DNA of 64,000 nucleotides from Christensenellales bacterium (GCA_051883455.1 JBJETT010000002.1:12584-76583); one strand, 5' to 3'; counted from the first letter of the stretch, positions 1-33,445 are shown. A program made the numbers and translations. The notes: generated by a model from the sequence alone, not told the origin.

Positions 1-1749
1 AAGCTTGACGGCTTGGTGGAAGCGGGTGCCAACGTGCCCGTGGTCAAGTACGACGACCCTAATTCCGGCTCGACTTGGACCTCGCTACTTTTCCCTATAG
101 GTTCGCTAATTTTGATGGGAATAGTGGTATTCTTCTTGTTTAGACAGGCGGGCGGAGCCAACAAACAAGCCATGAACTTTGGCAAAACCAAAGCAAGACT
201 TAATATGAATGTCAACGTCAAGTTTAGCGACGTGGCGGGCGCGGAAGAAGAAAAACTCGAACTGGCGGAGATTGTAGAATTCCTCAAAAATCCGCAAAAG
301 TTTACCGCACTCGGCGCAAGAATTCCTAAGGGCGTCTTGCTCGTAGGCCCTCCGGGAACTGGTAAAACGTTGTTTGCCAAAGCCGTAGCGGGCGAGAGCA
401 ACGTGCCTTTCTTCTCTATCAGTGGCTCCGACTTCGTAGAGATGTTCGTGGGTACTGGTGCTGCCAGAGTGAGAGATTTGTTCGACCAAGCCAAGCGCAA
501 TATGCCTTGCATAATATTTATCGACGAAATTGACGCCGTAGGTAGACACCGTGGCGCGGGACTCGGCGGCGGAAACGATGAGAGAGAGCAGACTCTCAAC
601 CAACTGCTCGTGCAAATGGACGGCTTCGAAAAGAACGACGGTATCATAATTATGGCGGCAACCAACAGAGTGGATATCCTTGACCCTGCCCTTATGAGAC
701 CGGGCAGATTTGATAGACAAATCTACGTCAACACCCCCGACGTCAAGGGTAGAGAGGCAATCTTCAAGGTGCACGCACGCAACAAACCGCTCGCTAGCGA
801 GATATCCTTCAAGGTGCTTGCTCGTATGACTAGCGGATTTAGCGGTGCGGATATCGAAAACTTGCTCAACGAGGCGTCTATTCTCGCCGCAAGAGCAGAT
901 AGAAAAGTCATTATTATGGAAGATATCCTCGAGGCAATCAACAAAGTCATCGCAGGACCTCAAAAGAAGAGTAGAATTATCACCGACAGCGACAAGCGTA
1001 TCACGGCTTATCACGAGGCGGGACACGCGATTATAGCCAAGGTTTTGCCACATTGCGACGAAGTGCAAGAAGTCAGCATAATTCCGAGAGGTATGGCTGC
1101 GGGATATACTTTGACCAGACCAGAGAGCGACGATAGCCACGTATCTAAGAATAAGCTCACCGACCTCATAACTATGATGCTCGGCGGTAGAGCTGCGGAA
1201 GAAATCGTCATCCACGACGTGTCGACGGGCGCTTCCAACGATATCCAAAGAGCAACTTCTATAGCAAGAAGTATGGTGACCGAGTGGGGTATGTCCGACA
1301 AGGTGGGCAATATCTTCCTCGGCGGAGAAAAGGAAGTATTCTTGGGCAAGGACTACGCTACCCAACACACCTATAGCGAAAAGATTGGCGATTTGATTGA
1401 CAGCGAAATCAAGAAGATAATCGACGACTGCTACGCAAGGGCAATCGAAGTGCTCAAGAGCAAGCGTGATATCCTCGACAATATGGTCAAGGTTTTGTAC
1501 GAAAAAGAGACCATATATACTAGCGAAGTGGAGATGTTGTTTGAGGGCAAAAGCGCCGAAGAGGTCATAGCGAGTATAGACGCTCGTCAAGAAAAGAACG
1601 ACAAATACAAAAAGACCTCTGCGCCTAAGGTAGAAATCGTGCCCGAAACAAGCAAAGAGCAAGAACAACCTACCGAGGACAAGATAGAGGACGAGGCGGA
1701 GGATAAGGAACAAATCACCCCGACCGACGAGCCCAAAGACAACGACTAA
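1..1749 (+). CDS. ftsH: ATP-dependent zinc metalloprotease FtsH (5' end outside window)
   Basis: Walker A GPPGTGKT, Walker [12 protein letters not shown] motif, HEAGH zinc site; frame 1 is open from base 1. Confidence 0.97.
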
Positions 1750-1754
1750 ACTCT

Positions 1755-1777
1755 AAGGACGCCAAGGCGTCCTTTTT
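1755..1777 (+). terminator. Intrinsic terminator after ftsH
   Basis: aaggacgcc-aa-ggcgtcctt followed by a T run. Confidence 0.8.
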
Positions 1778-1924
1778 GTTGGCGGTAGGCTTGACAACCG
1801 CTTATGCCGTCGGGCTAAACAGCTCTGGCAATGCAAAGACTGCAAACGCAACTTAAAATAGGTATTGAAAAATACTAATAATATTGTATAATATATCTAT
1901 ATCAATATAAGGATAGACGAAACT

Positions 1925-2620
1925 ATGGAAATACACGGACTTAACAAATTGACTTTGGTAGACTTCGACCGCAAGACGGCGTGCACGGTGTTTACGGGCA
2001 GATGCAATATGCGTTGTCCCTTTTGTCACAACTCGACCTTGGTGCTTGATCCTGCCTCTCAACCGATGATAAGCACGGAAGAGATATTTGCCTACCTTGC
2101 CAAGCGCAAGGGACTACTTGACGGGGTGTGCATAACGGGTGGAGAACCAACCTTGCAACCCGACATTGCCGAGTTTATGCAAGAGATAAAGAATAGAGGC
2201 TTTTTGGTCAAGCTAGACACCAACGGTAGCAACTACGATACTCTCAAAAAGCTTATCGACAACAAGCTCGTCGATTACGTGGCTATGGATATCAAAAACA
2301 GCCCCGAGGCTTATCCTCGCACCGTCGGCATCAAAAACTTCGACCTGTCGGGAGTCAAAAAGAGCGTAGAATTGCTAAAAGAAGGAAGGGTGGATTACGA
2401 ATTCCGCACCACGGTAGTCAAGCAACTGCACACCGCAGAAGATATGTTGGCAATAGCCGATTGGATCAAGGGAACTAAGAGATACTTTTTGCAAAAGTTT
2501 GTAGACTCGGGCAGTACTATTGCTCAAGGGCTCGAGGCTTGTAGCGACGAAGAGATGAAAGAGTTTCAAGCATTGCTGATAGAGAGGTCGATACCTACCC
2601 ACCTTAGAGGAGTTTTTTAA
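1925..2620 (+). CDS. nrdG: Anaerobic ribonucleotide reductase activating enzyme (radical SAM)
   Basis: CNMRCPFC radical SAM motif, ITGGEPT; adjacent to nrdD. Confidence 0.93.
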   Translation: MEIHGLNKLTLVDFDRKTACTVFTGRCNMRCPFCHNSTLVLDPASQPMISTEEIFAYLAKRKGLLDGVCITGGEPTLQPDIAEFMQEIKNRGFLVKLDTNGSNYDTLKKLIDNKLVDYVAMDIKNSPEAYPRTVGIKNFDLSGVKKSVELLKEGRVDYEFRTTVVKQLHTAEDMLAIADWIKGTKRYFLQKFVDSGSTIAQGLEACSDEEMKEFQALLIERSIPTHLRGVF

Positions 2621-2766
2621 TCGCTAGTCGATAGACCAACGACTTAGTAATACAAAAGCATCATATCAATCACATACCATCAAGCACACATAGCGATTTT
2701 TGTCGAAATGCGTGCTTTTTGCTAAAAAAAGCACTCTCGCAAAGGTTATATGTAAAATATCAAAAA

Positions 2767-2821
2767 ATACAAGATATTGTGTTTTTTTGCTCTTGACAAG
2801 CCCAATATGTTGTTTTATAAT
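2767..2821 (+). promoter_or_regulatory. sigmaA promoter of nrdD with tandem NrdR-like boxes
   Basis: TTGACA 2793-2798, 17 bp spacer, TATAAT 2816-2821; CAAGATATTG (2770-2779) and CAATATGTTG (2803-2812) each differ at one position from the NrdR core CwAtATaTwG. Confidence 0.75.
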
Positions 2822-2857
2822 GGTTGTACAGTGAAAATTTTAAGGGGAGTAAATGAG

Positions 2858-5227
2858 ATGTACCAAGTAGTAAAAAGAGACGGCGAAATCGTAGAATTCA
2901 GCCTTAGCAAAATAAGCAAAGCTATCGAAAGAGCCTTCGTTGCACAAAGCAGACAATACGTTCCAAGCATCATCGAGACGCTTGCTTTGAGAGTTACCGC
3001 GGACTTTGAGCCAAAGATTAAGGACAACCAAATCTCCGTAGAAAGCATCCAAGACAGCGTTGAGGCAGTTTTGGAACAATCGGGCTATACCGACGTTGCA
3101 AGAGCTTATATCTTGTATCGTAAACAAAGAGAAAAAATCCGTAACATGAAGTCGACTATCCTCGACTACAAAGACCTCGTCAACAGCTACGTAAAACTCG
3201 AGGACTGGCGTGTAAAAGAGAACTCCACCGTCACCTATTCCGTCGGCGGACTTATCCTTTCCAACTCGGGCGCTATCACCGCCAACTATTGGCTCAGCGA
3301 AGTTTATGACGAAGAAATCGGCAACGCACACCGCAACGCCGACATTCATATCCACGACTTGTCGATGCTTACCGGCTACTGTGCAGGTTGGTCGCTCAAA
3401 CAGCTCATTCAAGAAGGTTTGGGCGGAATTAGAGGTAAGATTACCTCCGCACCTGCAGCTCACTTGTCTACGCTTTGCAACCAAATGGTCAACTTCCTCG
3501 GTATTATGCAAAACGAATGGGCAGGCGCGCAAGCATTCTCTTCCTTCGACACCTACCTTGCTCCTTTCGTCAAGATAGACAACCTCTCCTACAAAGAGGT
3601 TAAGCAATGCTTGCAATCCTTTATCTACGGCGTCAACACCCCTAGCCGTTGGGGTACGCAAGCTCCGTTTACCAATATTACCCTTGACTGGACGGTTCCT
3701 GCAGACCTTGCAGAAAAGAACTGTATCGTCGGCGGAAAAGAAGTTGACTTCAAGTACAAGGATTGCGTAGACGAGATGGCTATGGTCAACAAGGCGTTTA
3801 TCGAAATCATGATTGAGGGCGACGCCAACGGTAGAGGTTTCCAATATCCTATCCCTACCTATTCTATCACCAAGGACTTCGACTGGTCGGACACCGAGAA
3901 TAACAGACTCTTGTTCGAGATGACTGCCAAGTACGGTACCCCTTACTTCTCCAACTATATCAACAGCGATATGGAGCCAAGCGACGTAAGAAGTATGTGC
4001 TGCAGACTTAGACTCGACCTTAGAGAACTAAGAAAGAAATCGGGTGGTTTCTTCGGTAGCGGCGAGAGCACGGGCTCGGTGGGCGTAGTTACCATCAACC
4101 TTCCACGTATCGCATATTTGTCCAAGAACGAAGAAGAGTTCTACGCTCGTCTTGATAGAATGATGGATATTGCCGCTCGAAGCCTCAAGAATAAGAGAGA
4201 TATCATCACCAAGTTGTTGGAAGAGGGACTCTATCCTTACACCAAGAGATACCTCGGCACCTTTAGCAACCACTTCTCGACCATAGGTCTTGTGGGTATG
4301 AACGAGGCTTGTCTCAACGCTAAGTGGATTGGCAAGGACTTGACGGAAAAAGAGTCGCAAGAGTTTGCAAAAGACGTGCTCAACCACATGCGCAACAGAC
4401 TCTCCGACTACCAAGAGAAGTACGGCGACCTCTATAACCTCGAGGCTACTCCTGCCGAGTCGACCTCTTATAGACTTGCTAAGCACGACAAAAAGCGTTA
4501 TCCTGACATCATCACCGCAAGCGACGCTGAGAACGGAACGCCTTACTACACCAACAGCTCTCACTTGCCTGTAGGCTATACCGCAGACATTTTCGAGGCT
4601 CTTGACGTTCAAGACGAGTTGCAAACTCTCTATACCTCGGGTACCGTATTCCACGCATTCCTCGGCGAGAAGCTTCCTGATTGGCAATCTACCGCCAACC
4701 TCGTTAGAAAGATTGCGGAGAACTACAAATTGCCATACTACACCATGAGCCCTACCTATTCGATATGTGCCGACCACGGTTATATCATAGGCGAGCACTA
4801 CAAGTGTCCTATTTGTGGCAAACCTGCGGAAGTATACAGCAGAATTACTGGTTACTACAGACCTGTCCAAAACTGGAACGACGGTAAGCTAGCAGAGTTC
4901 AAGAATAGAAAGGTTTACGATATTGCCAACTCTAAGATGAGCGCTAAGCACTGTTGCACCGCTCAACTCAAAGAAGAGCCTGTGGCGCAAGTTGAGGAGC
5001 AAGACGGAGTATATCTCTTTACTACGACGAGATGCCCTAACTGCCCAATCGCCAAAGAAGAGTTGCAAGCAGCGGGCGTAAATTATAAGCCTGTCGACGC
5101 CGAAGCCAACGAAGATATGTCGATGAAATACGGAATAATGCAAGTGCCAACTTTGGTGGTTGTCAAGGACGGACAAATCAACAAATACGCAGGCGTTATG
5201 AAAATCAAAAAATACCTAGAAGCTTAA
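2858..5227 (+). CDS. nrdD: Class III ribonucleoside-triphosphate reductase with N-terminal ATP cone and C-terminal glutaredoxin/NrdH-like domain
   Basis: VVKRDG ATP cone, SMCCRL finger loop, CxxH/CxxC zinc site, RITGYY glycyl radical loop, C-terminal CPNC...VPT redoxin fold; ATG 2858 follows GGGAG. Confidence 0.95.
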   Translation: MYQVVKRDGEIVEFSLSKISKAIERAFVAQSRQYVPSIIETLALRVTADFEPKIKDNQISVESIQDSVEAVLEQSGYTDVARAYILYRKQREKIRNMKSTILDYKDLVNSYVKLEDWRVKENSTVTYSVGGLILSNSGAITANYWLSEVYDEEIGNAHRNADIHIHDLSMLTGYCAGWSLKQLIQEGLGGIRGKITSAPAAHLSTLCNQMVNFLGIMQNEWAGAQAFSSFDTYLAPFVKIDNLSYKEVKQCLQSFIYGVNTPSRWGTQAPFTNITLDWTVPADLAEKNCIVGGKEVDFKYKDCVDEMAMVNKAFIEIMIEGDANGRGFQYPIPTYSITKDFDWSDTENNRLLFEMTAKYGTPYFSNYINSDMEPSDVRSMCCRLRLDLRELRKKSGGFFGSGESTGSVGVVTINLPRIAYLSKNEEEFYARLDRMMDIAARSLKNKRDIITKLLEEGLYPYTKRYLGTFSNHFSTIGLVGMNEACLNAKWIGKDLTEKESQEFAKDVLNHMRNRLSDYQEKYGDLYNLEATPAESTSYRLAKHDKKRYPDIITASDAENGTPYYTNSSHLPVGYTADIFEALDVQDELQTLYTSGTVFHAFLGEKLPDWQSTANLVRKIAENYKLPYYTMSPTYSICADHGYIIGEHYKCPICGKPAEVYSRITGYYRPVQNWNDGKLAEFKNRKVYDIANSKMSAKHCCTAQLKEEPVAQVEEQDGVYLFTTTRCPNCPIAKEELQAAGVNYKPVDAEANEDMSMKYGIMQVPTLVVVKDGQINKYAGVMKIKKYLEA

Positions 5228-5289
5228 AAAACTCAATACAGGTCGACAAAAGTAAGTCTTAGCACTTACTTTTGTCTTATAGGAGAGAT

Positions 5290-6192
5290 ATGTACGATAC
5301 TATAATCATAGGCGCGGGACCTGCCGGTCTTACCGCATCGATATACGTGCAGAGAGCGGGCAAAAAAGCTCTTGTGCTAGAAGCAATGGCAGTGGGCGGT
5401 CAAATCCGCAACACCCCCGAGATAGAGAACTATCCCGCTATAGCCAAAATCAGCGGAATGCAATACTCCGACGACTTGGCTGAGCAAGCCAAGGCGTTGG
5501 GCGCAGAAATAAAGAGAGAAAACGTGAGGTCGGTGCAACTTGTCGGTGACGTCAAGACTGTAACAACTCGCAACGCTACCTATCAAGCGAGGAGCGTAAT
5601 CATAGCAGTCGGCGCCAAGTCGAGAGAACTCGGCGTAGAAAAAGAAGAGGACTTGTTCGGCTGTGGCGTAAGCTATTGCGCTATATGTGACGGCGCCTTC
5701 TTTGCGGGCAAAGCCGTTGCCGTGTCGGGTGGTGGCAATACCGCTATCGACGACGCGCTCTTTTTGGCGGAGCGTTGCTCTAAAGTCTATCTGGTGCACC
5801 GAAGAAGCGAGTTTAGAGCCGAACAAATCAAGGTAGAGCAGCTCAAGAGCAAGTCCAACGTAGAATTGGTGCTTGGCTATACCGTAGATGCCTTGGAGGG
5901 CGAAGATTGCTTGCAAGGCGTGATCGTCAAGGATAAGCAAGGTGAAACTAGACGACTCGACGTGAGCGGACTATTCGTTGCTATTGGCAAAATTCCTAAT
6001 ACCGATATGTTGCAAGGTCAAATAGATATGGATGACCAAGGATATATCATTGCGGGCGAAGATTGCAAAACCAACGTCGAAGGCGTATGGGTAGCGGGCG
6101 ATTGCAGAGTCAAGCATATCCGTCAACTCACCACGGCAGTAGCCGACGGCACGATAGCTGCGCTCGGCGCAGTTGAGTACGTAAGGGGCTGA
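5290..6192 (+). CDS. trxB: Thioredoxin-disulfide reductase
   Basis: GAGPAG FAD motif, CAIC redox pair, GGGNTA NADPH motif, VAGD. Confidence 0.93.
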   Translation: MYDTIIIGAGPAGLTASIYVQRAGKKALVLEAMAVGGQIRNTPEIENYPAIAKISGMQYSDDLAEQAKALGAEIKRENVRSVQLVGDVKTVTTRNATYQARSVIIAVGAKSRELGVEKEEDLFGCGVSYCAICDGAFFAGKAVAVSGGGNTAIDDALFLAERCSKVYLVHRRSEFRAEQIKVEQLKSKSNVELVLGYTVDALEGEDCLQGVIVKDKQGETRRLDVSGLFVAIGKIPNTDMLQGQIDMDDQGYIIAGEDCKTNVEGVWVAGDCRVKHIRQLTTAVADGTIAALGAVEYVRG

Positions 6193-6253
6193 TATGGATA
6201 TTCGCGGTCAATTCAAAACGTTATAGAACTAATACAATTTAGTTGCTAAAGAT

Positions 6254-6281
6254 AAGACTCTCCAAGTGGGGGAGTCTTTTT
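6254..6281 (+). terminator. Intrinsic terminator after trxB
   Basis: aagactctcc/ggggagtctt stem plus T run. Confidence 0.7.
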
Positions 6282-6376
6282 GCGTATAATCTTGCTAGCT
6301 CGCCCTTGTGCCTTGTTTCAAAATAGATATTGCTATTTAGTTATTTTTATGTTAATATAATATTTAGAGTAAATAA

Positions 6377-9487
<3,111 letters not shown>

Positions 9488-9488
9488 T

Positions 9489-9971
9489 ATGGACAAGAAA
9501 AAAATTGCTTTGCAGACGAGTATGGCGGTAATATCCGTACTGCTCAATATTTGGGGACTGCTGTCGCTTCTACATACGATACAAGTGTTCAACGTACCTT
9601 TCTTAGCCTATCTCGACAACTTGAGGTTGTTGCTAAAATACGTGGTCATCGTCATCACTATGGCTTGCGGAATAATGCTTTTTGCTCGCTTTGCCACCAC
9701 CTTCAAGGGCAAAGTAAAAAACACGCTTGCCATCATCAACTGTACTTATAGCACCATTCTTACTCTTCCGCTCTTTGGCACCTTCGTAGGTTGCTTTTGG
9801 GCGATGAAGGGCATCAACGTGCCTATGGTCAGCGATATTTGCAACGAGTTTATGGACATATTCAAGTCCACGGGACTGCAATACTTTATTTTTATCGCGG
9901 GTACGATTATGGGAATAGTATTTTTGGCAGTGCCAATATTGATGACGGTGCAGACCGTCAAAAAGGATTAA
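9489..9971 (+). CDS. Hypothetical membrane protein (about 4 TM segments)
   Basis: Four hydrophobic stretches; ATG 1 nt after the lacZ stop. Confidence 0.75.
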   Translation: MDKKKIALQTSMAVISVLLNIWGLLSLLHTIQVFNVPFLAYLDNLRLLLKYVVIVITMACGIMLFARFATTFKGKVKNTLAIINCTYSTILTLPLFGTFVGCFWAMKGINVPMVSDICNEFMDIFKSTGLQYFIFIAGTIMGIVFLAVPILMTVQTVKKD

Positions 9972-10025
9972 ATTCAAAAGGTATTGAAGACGATAACACA
10001 ACAATCACGACAATAATTGTAAAAC

Positions 10026-29387: not shown

Positions 29388-29870
29388 ATGAATATAGAAG
29401 ATTGCACGGTCATTGACGAGATTTTGCAAGCCAACGACAACAGTGCCACCAATCTCATCAGCATTTTGCAACAAATCCAAGGCAAGTATAGATATTTGTC
29501 TCAAGAAGTTATGGAATACGTTGCTAAGAAATTGCAAATCAGTCCTGCCAAAATCTACAGTGTAGCGACTTTTTACGAAAACTTTTCGCTTGAGCCAAAG
29601 GGAAAATACGTATTTAGAGTGTGCGACGGTACGGCTTGTCACGTGCGTAAGTCCACCGCCGTTATCAACGCTTTGCGTGGAGAACTCGGACTTATCAACC
29701 AAGATACGACCGACGACCTTATGTTTACGATAGAGACGGTGTCTTGTCTCGGTGCGTGCGGACTTGCACCCGTGTTGACTCTCAACGACGTGGTTTATCC
29801 TGCAATGACGCCTGACAAAGTCAAGGCACTCATCAAAGAGATTAAGGAGAAAGAAAATGGAAAAGTTTAA
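29388..29870 (+). CDS. hydC: HydC/NuoE-like [2Fe-2S] subunit of bifurcating hydrogenase
   Basis: VCDGTACH and CLGACG motifs. Confidence 0.9.
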   Translation: MNIEDCTVIDEILQANDNSATNLISILQQIQGKYRYLSQEVMEYVAKKLQISPAKIYSVATFYENFSLEPKGKYVFRVCDGTACHVRKSTAVINALRGELGLINQDTTDDLMFTIETVSCLGACGLAPVLTLNDVVYPAMTPDKVKALIKEIKEKENGKV

Positions 29871-31734
29871 GAGCGACGTCGAACTCAAAGTTTTTAGAGA
29901 AACGTGCAAAGAAAACCTCGACAGCCAAAAGAAAAAGGTCTTGGTTTGCGCGGGTACGGGTTGTCTTGCAGGCGGTTCCGACAAGATATATCACCGCATA
30001 ATCGAATTGTGTCAAGCCAAAGGCATTGACGTTCAAGTATCGCTTGAGAGTCACGTTGACCACAGCGGAATTGGCGTCAAAAAGAGCGGTTGCAACGGCT
30101 TTTGCGAGCTTGGTCCCTTGCTTAGAATAGACCCAATGGGGTGGTTGTACACCAAGGTAAAACTCGAAGATTGCGAAGAGATAGTAGACAAGTCTATCGC
30201 TGGCGACGAGCTTATCACTAGACTTATCTACGAAAACAACGTGGCTTTTGCTAAGCAAGATGACATTCCTTTCTATGCTAAGCAGACTCGTACCGTACTT
30301 GCCAACTGCGGACACATTGACGCGGAGGATATAGGCGAATACATTGCCAAGGGCGGATACAGTGCGTTGGAAAAGGCGCTCTTTCACATGACTTCGCAAG
30401 AGATTTGCGACACGATGGTTACTTCCAACCTCAGAGGTAGAGGCGGTGGTGGTTATCCTACGGGACGCAAGTGGGCGCAAGTAGCCAGACAAAAACAACA
30501 ACAAAAGTACATAGTCTGCAACGGCGACGAGGGTGACCCTGGCGCATTTATGGACCGTAGCATTATGGAGGGCAATCCTCATTCCGTACTAGAGGGTATG
30601 ATGATAGCGGGTATTGCCACGGGTGCCGATACGGGCTATATCTACGTAAGAGCAGAATATCCTTTGGCAGTATCTCGTCTACACAAGGCGGTAGAACAAG
30701 CCAAAGAAGTCGGACTTTTGGGCAAAAATATACTTGGTAGCGGATTTAGTTTCGATATTCACATCAACCAAGGCGCGGGCGCATTCGTTTGCGGTGAAGG
30801 TAGCGCAATGACGGCGTCTATCGAAGGTAACAGAGGTATGCCTAGAGTCAAACCGCCTCGTACGGTAGAAGCAGGTTTGTTTGGCAAACCTACCGTGCTC
30901 AACAACGTTGAGACCTTCTCGACCGTACCGCTCATCATAGTCAACGGCGCAGAGTGGTTTTTGGGTATCGGTCCTGCCAACAGCCCGGGAACTAAAGCCT
31001 TTGCGCTTACCGGCAACGTGCGCAATACGGGACTTATCGAAGTACCGATGGGTACGACTTTGAGAGAAGTCGTGTTCGATATCGGCGGCGGTATCAAAAA
31101 CGATAAGAAGTTTAAGGCAGTGCAGATAGGCGGACCGTCGGGCGGTTGTTTGACGGAAGAGCACCTTGACCTTCCGCTTGACTTCGACTCACTCAAGAAG
31201 GTGGGCGCGATGATAGGTAGCGGTGGTCTCGTAGTTATGGACGAGGACACTTGTATGGTAGAGGTTGCGCGCTTCTTCATGAACTTTACCCAAAACGAGT
31301 CTTGCGGCAAGTGCGTACCTTGTAGAGAAGGCACCAAGAGAATGAAGGAAATTCTCGAAAGAATAGTAGCGGGACAAGGACAGCTCGAAGACCTCGATAT
31401 GTTGACGGAGCTTGCCGAAACTATCAGCGCAACGGCTCTGTGTGGACTAGGCAAGACGGCTGCGGGACCTGTTATCAGTACCCTCAAATATTTTAGAGAC
31501 GAGTACGTGACCCACGTCGTGGACAAGAAGTGTCCGACTCACGTATGTAGCAAACTCAAGACCATTTATATCGACCCTGAGGTATGTAGAGGTTGCAGCA
31601 AGTGCGCTAGACAATGCCCTGTTATGGCTATTAGCGGTGAAATCAAAAAGCCGTTCAAGATAGATCCTAACAAGTGTATTAAGTGCGGTGCGTGCGAGAC
31701 GGCTTGTCCGTTTAAGGCAATCAAGGAGGACTAA
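29857..31734 (+). CDS. hydB: HydB/NuoF-like FMN/NADH subunit
   Basis: GRGGGG, CNGDEGDPG, GAFVCGEGSA, SCGKCVPCREG, C-terminal 2[4Fe-4S] ferredoxin. Confidence 0.92.
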   Translation: MEKFKSDVELKVFRETCKENLDSQKKKVLVCAGTGCLAGGSDKIYHRIIELCQAKGIDVQVSLESHVDHSGIGVKKSGCNGFCELGPLLRIDPMGWLYTKVKLEDCEEIVDKSIAGDELITRLIYENNVAFAKQDDIPFYAKQTRTVLANCGHIDAEDIGEYIAKGGYSALEKALFHMTSQEICDTMVTSNLRGRGGGGYPTGRKWAQVARQKQQQKYIVCNGDEGDPGAFMDRSIMEGNPHSVLEGMMIAGIATGADTGYIYVRAEYPLAVSRLHKAVEQAKEVGLLGKNILGSGFSFDIHINQGAGAFVCGEGSAMTASIEGNRGMPRVKPPRTVEAGLFGKPTVLNNVETFSTVPLIIVNGAEWFLGIGPANSPGTKAFALTGNVRNTGLIEVPMGTTLREVVFDIGGGIKNDKKFKAVQIGGPSGGCLTEEHLDLPLDFDSLKKVGAMIGSGGLVVMDEDTCMVEVARFFMNFTQNESCGKCVPCREGTKRMKEILERIVAGQGQLEDLDMLTELAETISATALCGLGKTAAGPVISTLKYFRDEYVTHVVDKKCPTHVCSKLKTIYIDPEVCRGCSKCARQCPVMAISGEIKKPFKIDPNKCIKCGACETACPFKAIKED

Positions 31735-31738
31735 AGCA

Positions 31739-33445
31739 ATGGGAATAATGATTATCGACGGACATAGAGTAGAGTTTACCGACGAGCAGAACATACTTGC
31801 AGTCATCAGAAAAGCAGGTATCGAATTGCCAACCTTCTGTTACAATTCCGACTTGTCCATATACGGTGCGTGTCGTATGTGCGTGGTAGAGGACGATAGA
31901 GGAAGCATTCACGCATCTTGTTCCACCCCACCTAAGGACGGAATGGTTATCAAGACCAACACCGAGAGGTTGCATAAGCATCGCAAGATGATACTCGAGC
32001 TTTTGCTTGCCAGCCACTGCAAAGATTGCACCACTTGCGAGAGAAACGGCAACTGCCGTCTGCAAGAATTGGCAGCTAAGTTCGGTATCAAAAAGATAAG
32101 ATTTGAGGACACTCGTCCAAAAGCAGAGATAGACAAGAGCGCCAAGGGTATCGTTAGAGATCCTAACAAATGTATCCTGTGCGGCGACTGCGTGCGTATG
32201 TGTAGCGAAGTGCAAGGCATAGGTGCTATCGACTTTGCTCATAGAGGCAGCGAGGTTAGAGTTATGCCTGCCTTCAATCGTCCGCTTGCCGAGAGCAACT
32301 GCGTCAACTGCGGTCAATGCGCGGCGGTATGTCCTACGGGTGCTATCGTCATCAACAACCAGACCGACAAGTTGTGGCACTTGCTTGGCAACAAAGAGGG
32401 CAAGCGTATCGTTGCGCAGATTGCCCCAGCCGTAAGAGTGGCAATAGGCGAAGAGTTTGGCTTCGAGGCAGGTAGAAACGGACTCGGTAAGACAGTGGCT
32501 GCACTTCACAAACTCGGCTTTGACGAGGTTTACGACACTTCTTTGAGTGCCGACTTGACGGTTATCGAAGAGTCTAACGAGTTTTTGGATAGGCTCAACA
32601 ACAACGGCGTTTTCCCAATGTTTACCTCGTGCTGTCCCGGTTGGATACAGTACGTAGAAAAGATGCACCCCGAACTCAAGCCTAACGTATCCACTTGTCG
32701 TAGCCCAATGAGTATGTTTAGTAGCGTAATCAAAGATTATTACAACAAAAAGGACGACGGCAAAGAGACCTACGTAGTAGCAATTATGCCTTGTACGGCT
32801 AAGAAATACGAAGCCGACAGACCTGAATTTACCGCAGCTGACGGCAGACAAGAGACCGACCTCGTCATCACTACGAGAGAACTCGTCAAGATGATCAAGC
32901 GTGCAGGAATTTTGTTCAACGAGCTGGAGGGCGAAGCTCCCGATATGCCGTTTGGACTCTTTAGTGGCGCAGGCGTTATATTTGGCGTAACGGGTGGCGT
33001 TACCGAAGCCGTTATTCGTAGATGCAGCACCGACAAGAGCAAAGAGGCGCTTGACAAAATTGCAATTATCGGCGTAAGAGGTAGAGAGACTCTCAAAACC
33101 ACGAGCATTATGATTGGAGATAGAGAGGTCAAAATCGCTATCGTCTACGGACTAAAAGCCGCGGGTGAACTCATCAAAGACTTGCAGTCGGGCAAAGCAT
33201 ACTACGACTTTATTGAGGTGATGGCTTGTCCTGAGGGCTGTATCGCCGGAGGCGGACAACCTTGCACCAAGTATAAAGATAGGGAGCATAGAGCGAGAGG
33301 CTTGTATCACGTAGATAGAAAATTGCAAATCAAGTCGTCCGACCAAAACCCTGCCGTTACTCAAATCTACGACTACATCATAGGCAAGAGAAGACACGAG
33401 CTGTTGCATATCGACTACGTCAAGGACGGCAAGCACGAAGAGTAA
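31739..33445 (+). CDS. hydA: [FeFe]-hydrogenase catalytic subunit (NADH-dependent, group A3 type)
   Basis: H-cluster motifs TSCCPGW, MPCTAKKYE, EVMACPEGCIAGGG; N-terminal Fe-S domains. Confidence 0.93.
   Translation: MGIMIIDGHRVEFTDEQNILAVIRKAGIELPTFCYNSDLSIYGACRMCVVEDDRGSIHASCSTPPKDGMVIKTNTERLHKHRKMILELLLASHCKDCTTCERNGNCRLQELAAKFGIKKIRFEDTRPKAEIDKSAKGIVRDPNKCILCGDCVRMCSEVQGIGAIDFAHRGSEVRVMPAFNRPLAESNCVNCGQCAAVCPTGAIVINNQTDKLWHLLGNKEGKRIVAQIAPAVRVAIGEEFGFEAGRNGLGKTVAALHKLGFDEVYDTSLSADLTVIEESNEFLDRLNNNGVFPMFTSCCPGWIQYVEKMHPELKPNVSTCRSPMSMFSSVIKDYYNKKDDGKETYVVAIMPCTAKKYEADRPEFTAADGRQETDLVITTRELVKMIKRAGILFNELEGEAPDMPFGLFSGAGVIFGVTGGVTEAVIRRCSTDKSKEALDKIAIIGVRGRETLKTTSIMIGDREVKIAIVYGLKAAGELIKDLQSGKAYYDFIEVMACPEGCIAGGGQPCTKYKDREHRARGLYHVDRKLQIKSSDQNPAVTQIYDYIIGKRRHELLHIDYVKDGKHEE

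Follow-up and report, generated by a model that had tools for sequence, protein, structure and literature searches.

A class III ribonucleotide reductase with a fused thioredoxin-fold domain and a neighboring thioredoxin reductase gene in a Christensenellales bacterium

Where do class III ribonucleotide reductases (RNRs) with two adjacent cysteines in the finger loop obtain the electrons for turnover? In most of these double-cysteine enzymes the methionine of the loop is retained, which leaves it undecided whether formate or thioredoxin is the physiological reductant (PMC9669993). The question is raised anew by a locus at positions 2858-6192 of a 64,000-nt stretch of DNA from a Christensenellales bacterium (GCA_051883455.1 JBJETT010000002.1:12584-76583), the whole of which is called the window below. 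Here, an nrdD gene of the double-cysteine kind ends in a thioredoxin-fold domain and is followed by trxB, a gene for a thioredoxin reductase (TrxR). We consider it fairly probable that nrdD and trxB form one transcription unit and encode an NrdD2-type class III RNR with its own reductant system attached. The elements that this reading involves are the following.

2858-5227, plus strand: nrdD fusion gene, 789 amino acids (aa), comprising an ATP-cone, a class III RNR core, a linker and a thioredoxin-fold domain
2864-3133, plus strand: ATP-cone, the allosteric on/off domain, aa 3-92 (Pfam PF03477, 79 bits; AlphaFold2 [AF2] pLDDT 78-90)
3380-3382, plus strand: C175 in GYCAGW (motif 3374-3391), counterpart of T. 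maritima C125 (YCFAY) in the alignment; the conserved "bottom" cysteine of beta-A and a putative disulfide partner
3992-4009, plus strand: finger loop S-M380-C381-C382-R-L, with the thiyl-radical cysteine and the extra cysteine (CC codons 3998-4003)
4442-4444, plus strand: E529 in NLEATPAES (motif 4436-4462), NrdD2-type active-site glutamate; aligns with T. maritima E495 (NIEQVPAE)
4766-4852, plus strand: glycyl-radical domain, with the zinc site C637, H640, C650, C653 and the loop RITG665Y (glycine codon 4850-4852)
4925-5002, plus strand: linker, aa 690-715, variable and predicted to be disordered (AF2 pLDDT ~30, without secondary structure); H-C699-C700 at 4952-4957
5003-5224, plus strand: thioredoxin-fold redoxin domain, aa 716-789, with C726-P-N-C729 (5033-5044) and the cis-Pro motif V-P764-T (5144-5152)
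5245-5257/5264-5276, plus strand: intergenic RNA hairpin (perfect 13-bp stem, 6-nt loop), with 5 nt between its end and the ribosome-binding site of trxB
5290-6192, plus strand: trxB, low-Mr thioredoxin reductase, 300 aa, with its ATG at 5290

The nrdD product was identified from its sequence as the catalytic subunit of a class III RNR: the curated NCBIfam models PRK08270 and TIGR02487 scored above cut-off (1143 bits against 548, and 528 against 326), the glycyl loop and zinc cluster are present and nrdG lies upstream. Among Pfam families, NRDD (PF13597) gave 645 bits, and the ATP-cone, Glutaredoxin, Thioredoxin_3 and Thioredoxin families also matched. The zinc site and glycyl loop align with "SVCEDGH...CPVCGK...RIVGY" of the T. 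maritima NrdD, to which the window protein is only distantly related (E 3e-44), and are invariant in our alignments A1-A3. C381 and C382 align with the SCCR loop of T. maritima (C329/C330) and with TMGCR of P. copri. At the position of E529, the formate-type enzymes have Leu (P. copri NrdD) or Tyr (T4 NrdD, 1H78, and 9D3X), the site reading FSLYSTPAE and FSVYSTPSE in the latter two versus YNLEATPAE in the window. An earlier note on this DNA had drawn the same contrast with formate-type NrdDs, and the three motifs on which it was based, SMCCRL, GYCAGW and NLEATPAES, were all recovered at the positions it gave. The NrdD2 subtype (Wei et al. 2014, as defined in PMC4493059) is characterized by a third active-site cysteine, that is, a double-cysteine finger loop, together with an active-site glutamate. 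Judged by the T. maritima alignment, the window NrdD carries this signature in C381-C382 and E529. The signature is also stable, as GYCAGW and NLEATPAE were found in all 77 fused homologues aligned and SMCCRL in 76.

The same earlier note had described a domain of roughly 74 aa with CPNC and VPT motifs behind the glycyl loop, and this corresponds to aa 716-789. Searched alone with profile models, as that note had proposed, the tail exceeded the Pfam gathering cut-offs of three thioredoxin-fold families: Thioredoxin_3 (31.4 vs. 24.8 bits), Glutaredoxin (31.3 vs. 22.9) and Thioredoxin (28.1 vs. 23.5). The curated models all stayed below their cut-offs, including that of NrdH (TIGR02194, 18.9 bits against 85.75) and those of YruB (TIGR02196, 40.7 against 88.6), MJ0307-type thioredoxin (TIGR00411, 35.4 against 92.8) and glutaredoxin (TIGR02181, 20.4 against 90). 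Passing the Pfam cut-offs and falling far short of the curated small-redoxin models, the tail thus appears to be a short and divergent redoxin distinct from these families. Its sequence matches in the PDB were the thioredoxins 1FO5 and 2GZY. In a full-length AF2 model, the tail was predicted at pLDDT 83-88 with elements in the order b-a-b-a-b-b-a, CPNC at 726-729 opening helix 1 (729-738) and Pro764, whose cis conformation we assumed, preceding strand 3 (765-770). The model was built from a shallow alignment of 25 sequences, all at least 79% identical, and for this reason the RNR core came out poorly (mean pLDDT 57); we used only the confident tail and ATP-cone and the disordered linker. A model of the tail from its single sequence reached pLDDT 39 and was not used.

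The residues expected of a working redoxin are the ones that are kept. C726, P727, N728, C729, P764 and T765 were invariant in the alignments, and across the 77 fused homologues the redox motif reads CPNC in 72, CPKC in three and CAKC in two, with a cis-Pro motif of the form [AV]PT[LM] in nearly all. Conservation of the tail over at least 80 species, against a drifting linker, argues for selection on the redox motif. By fold assignment and conservation, then, the tail is a genuine thioredoxin-fold dithiol domain and more than a chance CxxC. The linker, about 26 residues long in the window, varies from 19 to 67 aa among the 77 homologues, and its unconserved and apparently disordered sequence is consistent with a flexible tether. 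A vicinal cysteine pair occurs in the linker of 26 of the 77, in the forms CC, CxC or CxxC (CEAC, CESC, CASC), and half of the family has none. The pair was seen in 18 of 44 fused loci of the L005-L084 set with an adjacent trxB and in 2 of 24 without one (Fisher P = 0.005, not corrected for phylogeny), and it may act as a shuttle dithiol like those of class I and II enzymes. One distant relative (P0152, 782 aa) looks like a decayed copy: its linker is N-rich and of low complexity, the tail keeps the VPTLVV strand with the CxxC lost (RNDEN), and the glycyl loop could not be recognized by motif search.

The spacing of the two genes is as the earlier note had counted it, exactly 62 nt separating the nrdD stop (5227) from the trxB ATG, with the ribosome-binding site AGGAGAG just 5' of the latter. 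That note had also called for a survey of how often fusion and trxB occur together. We scanned one genome per species, obtaining at least 600 matches, and examined the best 80, all of which cover the tail. Fused loci with enough downstream sequence numbered 76 in this set, and trxB was found downstream on the same strand in 47 of them, 46 times directly and once after a 485-nt gap. A second scan started from unfused relatives that have the same MCCR and Glu core and about 50% identity to the window protein. It gave 63 unfused and 17 fused loci; trxB was present in six, all of them fused metagenome loci, and in none of the 63 unfused loci within flanks of 3.5 kb. Combined, trxB adjoins 53 of 88 fused and 0 of 63 unfused genes (Fisher P 2e-17), or 0 of 45 unfused genes if only those with 1.6 kb or more of sequence behind them are counted (P 1e-13), neither value being corrected for phylogeny. 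The adjacency of trxB is thus tightly tied to the fusion in the genomes compared, in support of a putative chain from NADPH through TrxB and the redoxin to the cysteine pair. In a very abundant relative whose NrdD is 80% identical, the flanks vary between contigs and nrdG, the fused nrdD and trxB (after a 3-nt gap) stay together. The gene orders also differ: unfused nrdD is followed directly by nrdG (L085-L164), and around fused nrdD the usual order is nrdG-nrdD-trxB (L005-L084); a few fused loci keep nrdG downstream (L090, L102 and L117).

The window TrxB has the motifs of a flavoprotein that uses NADPH. The FAD motif GAGPAG lies at aa 8-13 (5311-5328), the redox motif C130-A-I-C133 at 5677-5688, and the NADPH motifs GGGNTA and HRRSEFR at aa 147-152 (5728-5745) and aa 170-176 (5797-5817); GxGxxA and HRRxxxR are the NAD(P)H motifs that define NTRs in Clostridia (PMC10880999). 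Its best relatives in the PDB are all thioredoxin reductases (E 4e-73), the ferredoxin-dependent FFTRs matching much more weakly. Carrying the NTR motifs and being closest to thioredoxin reductases, the enzyme of this organism can reasonably be expected to use NADPH. The linked TrxR-like enzymes of the wider set (L001-L167) fall into three types at the loop that binds the NADPH 2'-phosphate: HRRxxxR in 12 of 54, including the window, a "V(I/V)QNLxxxTGE" loop in 32 and a "TLFDKFF" loop in 10, the last including very abundant human-gut species and having GDANTA in place of GGGxxA. Judging from these loops, most of the linked enzymes may depart from the canonical use of NADPH. We considered whether they might be FFTR-like and rejected this, as all three loop types match canonical TrxRs best and the FFTR structures 6GNA-D much more weakly.

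Signals for transcription suggest that the two genes form a unit, and lie among the following features.

13-1749, plus strand: ftsH, followed by a terminator at 1755-1774
1925-2620, plus strand: nrdG, radical-SAM activase of class III RNR (NCBIfam TIGR02495 NrdG2, 208.9 bits, cut-off 131; Pfam Radical_SAM)
2767-2821, plus strand: nrdD-trxB promoter region, with a perfect sigma-70-like TTGACA-17-TATAAT at 2793-2821 (promoter scan 12/12)
2767-2782 and 2800-2815, plus strand: NrdR-box-like palindromes over the nrdD promoter, box 1 ATACAAGATATTGTGT (2 mismatches to the consensus) and box 2 GCCCAATATGTTGTTT
6256-6283, plus strand: intrinsic terminator GACTCTCC-AAGT-GGGGGAGTC followed by TTTTT (terminator scan), the probable end of the nrdD-trxB unit

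The one promoter found for nrdD and trxB precedes nrdD, and the one strong terminator follows trxB. The promoter lies within the 237-nt gap that separates nrdD from nrdG. In most relatives, too, nrdG precedes the fused nrdD; in the window it has a promoter-like site of its own behind the 1755-1774 terminator. In the 95% and 89% relatives (L165 and L166) the promoter is retained together with both boxes, box 1 being nearer to the consensus there, and the box spacing of 33 bp compares with about 31 bp for the NrdR boxes of S. coelicolor. Across the window the box pattern matched twice against 0.95 expected, which is no enrichment, and the assignment draws on position and on conservation in the relatives; together these suggest that nrdD-trxB is under the control of NrdR, separately from nrdG, with the boxes as putative operators. 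Between nrdG and the nrdD promoter, at 2700-2735, the window has an AT-rich inverted repeat, GTGCTTTTT-gct-AAAAAGCAC, which is also found in L165 and may be a weak terminator dividing nrdG from nrdD-trxB.

The earlier note had seen no terminator between nrdD and trxB. This stands insofar as the terminator scan found no canonical GC-rich stem with a T-run in the gap; the gap does, however, contain the conserved 13-bp hairpin. Its predicted free energy is -17.6 kcal/mol (z = -3.7), none of 200 shuffled sequences being as stable. L165 and L166 retain the stem with different loops, one G-U change and diverged flanks; the 80% relative, with its 3-nt gap, lacks it. Lacking a T-run, the hairpin is no textbook terminator, and it may slow read-through or stabilize or process the RNA (attenuation, stability, processing). 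An Rfam scan of positions 1-10000 (E <= 1) gave no match, so that neither leader nor hairpin corresponds to a riboswitch or another known RNA. Transcription of the locus is seen in contigs from pig-gut metatranscriptomes. As these are assembled contigs, they are only suggestive as to cotranscription: one contig of 2554 nt spans 3079-5630 and crosses the junction of the two genes.

Put together, these parts would work as follows. NrdG, encoded just upstream, would place the glycyl radical on G665, from which, at each turnover, the radical would move to the finger-loop pair C381/C382. The two electrons needed for removal of the 2'-OH would come from C175 and one of C381/C382, leaving a disulfide, with E529 as the proton relay. 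The tail C726-P-N-C729, which its flexible linker would let reach the active site of the same or of the partner subunit, would then reduce the disulfide again, and the probably cotranscribed TrxB would recycle the oxidized tail using FAD and NADPH. We infer every one of these electron transfers, and the use of NADPH, from the motifs and their arrangement; C699 and C700 of the linker may participate in the transfer. Precedents for the scheme are the use of thioredoxin by the N. bacilliformis NrdD (summarized in PMC9669993), the reduction of a class I RNR by a fused glutaredoxin (PMC6187632) and the NrdD3 system with its NrdH-like redoxin and ferredoxin disulfide reductase (PMC9176816).

Several observations weigh against this scheme. 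The searchable literature yielded no biochemical data for any redoxin-fused NrdD, and the RNR core, which the tail would have to reach, was modeled poorly (pLDDT 57). The window TrxB scored 341.3 bits over its full length against the TIGR01292 equivalog cut-off of 343.45, 2 bits under, and with most linked reductases of other species lacking HRRxxxR, the use of NADPH does not generalize. The hairpin, together with a drop in contig depth after about 5230-5270 in three of four metatranscriptome runs (weak evidence), suggests that nrdD and trxB are not expressed strictly 1:1. In 29 of the 76 fused genomes (38%), mostly Lachnospiraceae, there is no trxB nearby, so a dedicated neighbor is not needed and the fused domain there would be served from elsewhere in the genome; the earlier note went too far in calling the system self-contained and hard-wired. 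Finally, M380 is retained, and by the published criterion (PMC9669993) formate could serve the window NrdD as well.

The last two points lead to the alternative that survives best, although we regard it as unlikely: a dual-reductant enzyme, which would draw on formate as far as fermentation provides it and otherwise on the NADPH/TrxB/redoxin route, the fusion supplementing formate and not replacing it. Burnim et al. (2022) describe the majority type with MCCR and Glu as equipped for formate or thioredoxin, its loop and glutamate being components for either reductant, and assign exclusive use of thioredoxin to small clades that lack the loop methionine (PMC9669993). The window NrdD falls outside such a subclade, marked by Glu and an SCCR-like loop without Met, as M380 is present, and the methionine is retained in 76 of the 77 fused homologues. 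The earlier note's "formate-independent" was an overstatement. The many fused genomes without trxB beside nrdD also suit a second source of electrons. On the other hand, no formate-related gene was linked to nrdD in any of the 160 loci examined, and none was seen among the window open reading frames (ORFs) scanned, which include no pyruvate formate-lyase; the conservation of the redoxin motif, moreover, argues that the thiol route matters. There is likewise no second trxB and no thioredoxin in the window. The negatives from the window cover 64 kb only, and a housekeeping thioredoxin or TrxB, or a source of formate, may lie elsewhere in the genome, which again tells against a closed NADPH-driven system. 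We also looked for another reductase in the 29 fused loci without trxB and rejected the candidates: their downstream ORFs of about 300 aa are, by sequence inspection, pyrF-like (orotidine-phosphate decarboxylase) or thyA-like (thymidylate synthase). Such a gene follows fused nrdD in L012, L014, L019 and L064 and in L024, L028, L043, L052, L071 and L083, and these neighbors look like nucleotide metabolism rather than redox partners.

A quite improbable alternative is that formate is the turnover reductant and that the redoxin and TrxB keep structural or regulatory cysteines reduced, for example C637, C650 and C653 of the zinc site, letting NrdG install the radical or the enzyme recover after exposure to oxygen. 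The redoxin domain is indeed attached directly behind the zinc-ribbon/glycyl-radical domain, thioredoxin is reported to activate the formate-dependent E. coli class III RNR (PMC4390871), and the almost universally conserved M380 is needed by the formate mechanism (PMC9669993). Maintenance, however, would leave unexplained the extra finger-loop cysteine and E529, which are needed for turnover with thiols, are lacking in formate enzymes and are conserved in 77 of 77 fused homologues, and a covalent redoxin in stoichiometric amount with a dedicated reductase would be heavy equipment for occasional repair. That trxB encodes a general thioredoxin reductase placed there by chance, with a vestigial or purely structural tail, is very hard to credit: the TrxB does resemble an ordinary NTR, the window offers no second trxB for comparison and linked TrxBs share only 41-51% identity between species with NrdDs 73-78% alike, but a chance neighborhood is unlikely given the lack of trxB at all 63 unfused genes, the CxxC and cis-Pro are invariant in distant species while the linker drifts, and the window tail is unlike that of P0152 with its lost CxxC.

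The fusion is common far beyond the window. The best 120 database matches to the window NrdD were all 785-829 aa long with the same domains, an architecture shared by more than 120 homologues of this length; a protein 80% identical to that of the window occurred on at least 1000 contigs, and a further one on 464. Near-identical proteins are encoded in pig-gut and other gut metagenome-assembled genomes (MAGs) labeled Eubacteriales, Clostridia or Christensenellales, and fused genes are also found in very abundant human-gut lineages, in Lentisphaeria/Victivallaceae MAGs and in cultured isolates, Lachnospiraceae among them: Pseudobutyrivibrio sp. YE44, Butyrivibrio sp. INlla16, Kineothrix alysoides, Clostridium boliviensis, Ruminococcus turbiniformis and Clostridiales bacterium CCNA10. 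Of the 72 clusters (50% identity) whose C terminus is intact, about 17 are fused. The four Lentisphaeria/Victivallaceae MAGs (L059, L067, L074 and L076) have fused NrdDs 74-75% identical to that of the window, as close as many Clostridia, which suggests horizontal transfer of the fused gene; trxB is downstream in two of the four.

Variants of the architecture were seen among more distant NrdDs. In P0236 and P0251, a C-terminal radical-SAM activase domain takes the place of the redoxin, giving NrdD-NrdG fusions. Many representatives among P0122-P0270 are 1000-1880 aa long and matched the query in two to four separate stretches, the pattern expected of intein-bearing NrdDs, and the redoxin tail also occurs on such long proteins (P0125, P0127 and P0133). 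Some strains of the 80% relative have small GIY-YIG ORFs, homing-endonuclease-like, between nrdG and nrdD or close to them (L003, 5295-5821; L002, 3528-3782). A protein of 950 aa (P0019) was considered as a new architecture and rejected: a stretch of about 155 residues of the NrdD core is duplicated in tandem within it, giving a second finger loop, and this is probably an assembly artifact.

Beyond trxB and its terminator, the window continues with a GH2 beta-galactosidase gene. Its remaining genes are an ordinary set for a saccharolytic anaerobe: glycoside hydrolases, fucose isomerase, a HydABC-type [FeFe]-hydrogenase, methionyl-tRNA synthetase and citrate synthase. At 29857-33445, a Nuo51-like flavoprotein (NuoF/HydB-like, 625 aa) adjoins the large subunit of the [FeFe]-hydrogenase (585 aa). 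Such a pair is typical of electron-bifurcating hydrogenases and bears on the balance of NAD(P)H and ferredoxin in this anaerobe.

For the MCCR majority type, a fused redoxin with a reductase probably in the same operon is strong genomic evidence for the thiol route, and the locus offers a compact system for settling the question of the reductant: NrdG, one fusion protein, TrxB and NADPH. The supply of deoxynucleoside triphosphates (dNTPs) would thereby be linked to NADPH rather than to formate production. As the architecture is found in very abundant Clostridia of the human and livestock gut, it describes how DNA precursors are made in a large share of gut anaerobes. More tentatively, the fused redoxin might mark a large class III RNR family, unrecognized in the searchable literature, with an external relay like that of classes I and II, a linker cysteine shuttle in about a third of its members and dedicated TrxR-like flavoenzymes of three kinds, the NADPH type being a minority that includes the window and the QNL/TLFDKFF majority using, for example, NADH or ferredoxin. 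If this is true, gut Clostridia couple dNTP synthesis to different parts of their fermentative redox metabolism.

Compared with known systems, the fusion is a new architectural form of the thioredoxin-dependent NrdD2, widespread and, in the searchable literature, uncharacterized. The full-text literature searched, whose coverage leaves out Wei et al. 2014 (PNAS) and 2015 (Biochemistry), contained no study of a redoxin fused to NrdD, which agrees with the earlier note, whose author was aware of no biochemical test of such a fusion. As an architecture it is less novel than that note implied, being very common and having one entry in a 2018 RefSeq survey, a Glutaredoxin:NrdD of Lachnospiraceae bacterium TWA4 (WP_082039398) listed without study (PMC6187632). 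Related systems are the NrdD2 enzymes of N. bacilliformis and T. maritima (PDB 4U3E/4COI), which share the glycyl-radical RNR fold, the beta-A cysteine, the double-cysteine loop and the glutamate. For the N. bacilliformis enzyme, the reductant is given as thioredoxin, TrxR and NADPH, thioredoxin reducing a disulfide of this kind (PMC9669993, PMC4493059). These enzymes have SCCR without Met and a free, separate thioredoxin, whereas the window has MCCR, a fused redoxin and trxB probably in the same operon. The NrdD3 of Methanosarcina barkeri is, according to secondary citations, similar in being a class III RNR whose operon also encodes a small redoxin of thioredoxin type and a reductase; it differs in lacking the Glu, in having a separate NrdH-like redoxin and in its [4Fe-4S] ferredoxin-dependent reductase in place of a flavoprotein TrxR (PMC9176816).

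Dedicated pairing of a reductase with a pathway is itself familiar from Clostridia, which carry two to four TrxBs, some paired with and encoded beside a pathway, as are TrxA3/TrxB3 with the grd operon of C. difficile. Those systems have a separate TrxA and serve glycine reductase or stress defense, no nrdD-linked copy being described there (PMC10880999). A redoxin fused to an RNR subunit is known from the Grx::ATP-cone::NrdB of Facklamia ignava, where it was shown to be a reductant acting by a dithiol mechanism (PMC6187632). That fusion is N-terminal, on the radical-generating subunit of a class I enzyme, and depends on glutathione, whereas in the window the redoxin is fused to the C terminus of the catalytic subunit, the enzyme is of class III and the partner is a TrxR. 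Similar in principle are the C-terminal Cys-pair tails of class I and II RNRs, flexible extensions whose redox cysteines ferry electrons to a buried site (PMC4390871; PMC9669993). Class III enzymes are held to be without such external cysteines (Lundin et al. 2015, PMC4390871), a textbook view that the fusion contradicts; and whereas the class I and II tails are a bare Cys pair or a zinc finger fed by free thioredoxin or glutaredoxin, the tail of the window NrdD is a whole redoxin domain.

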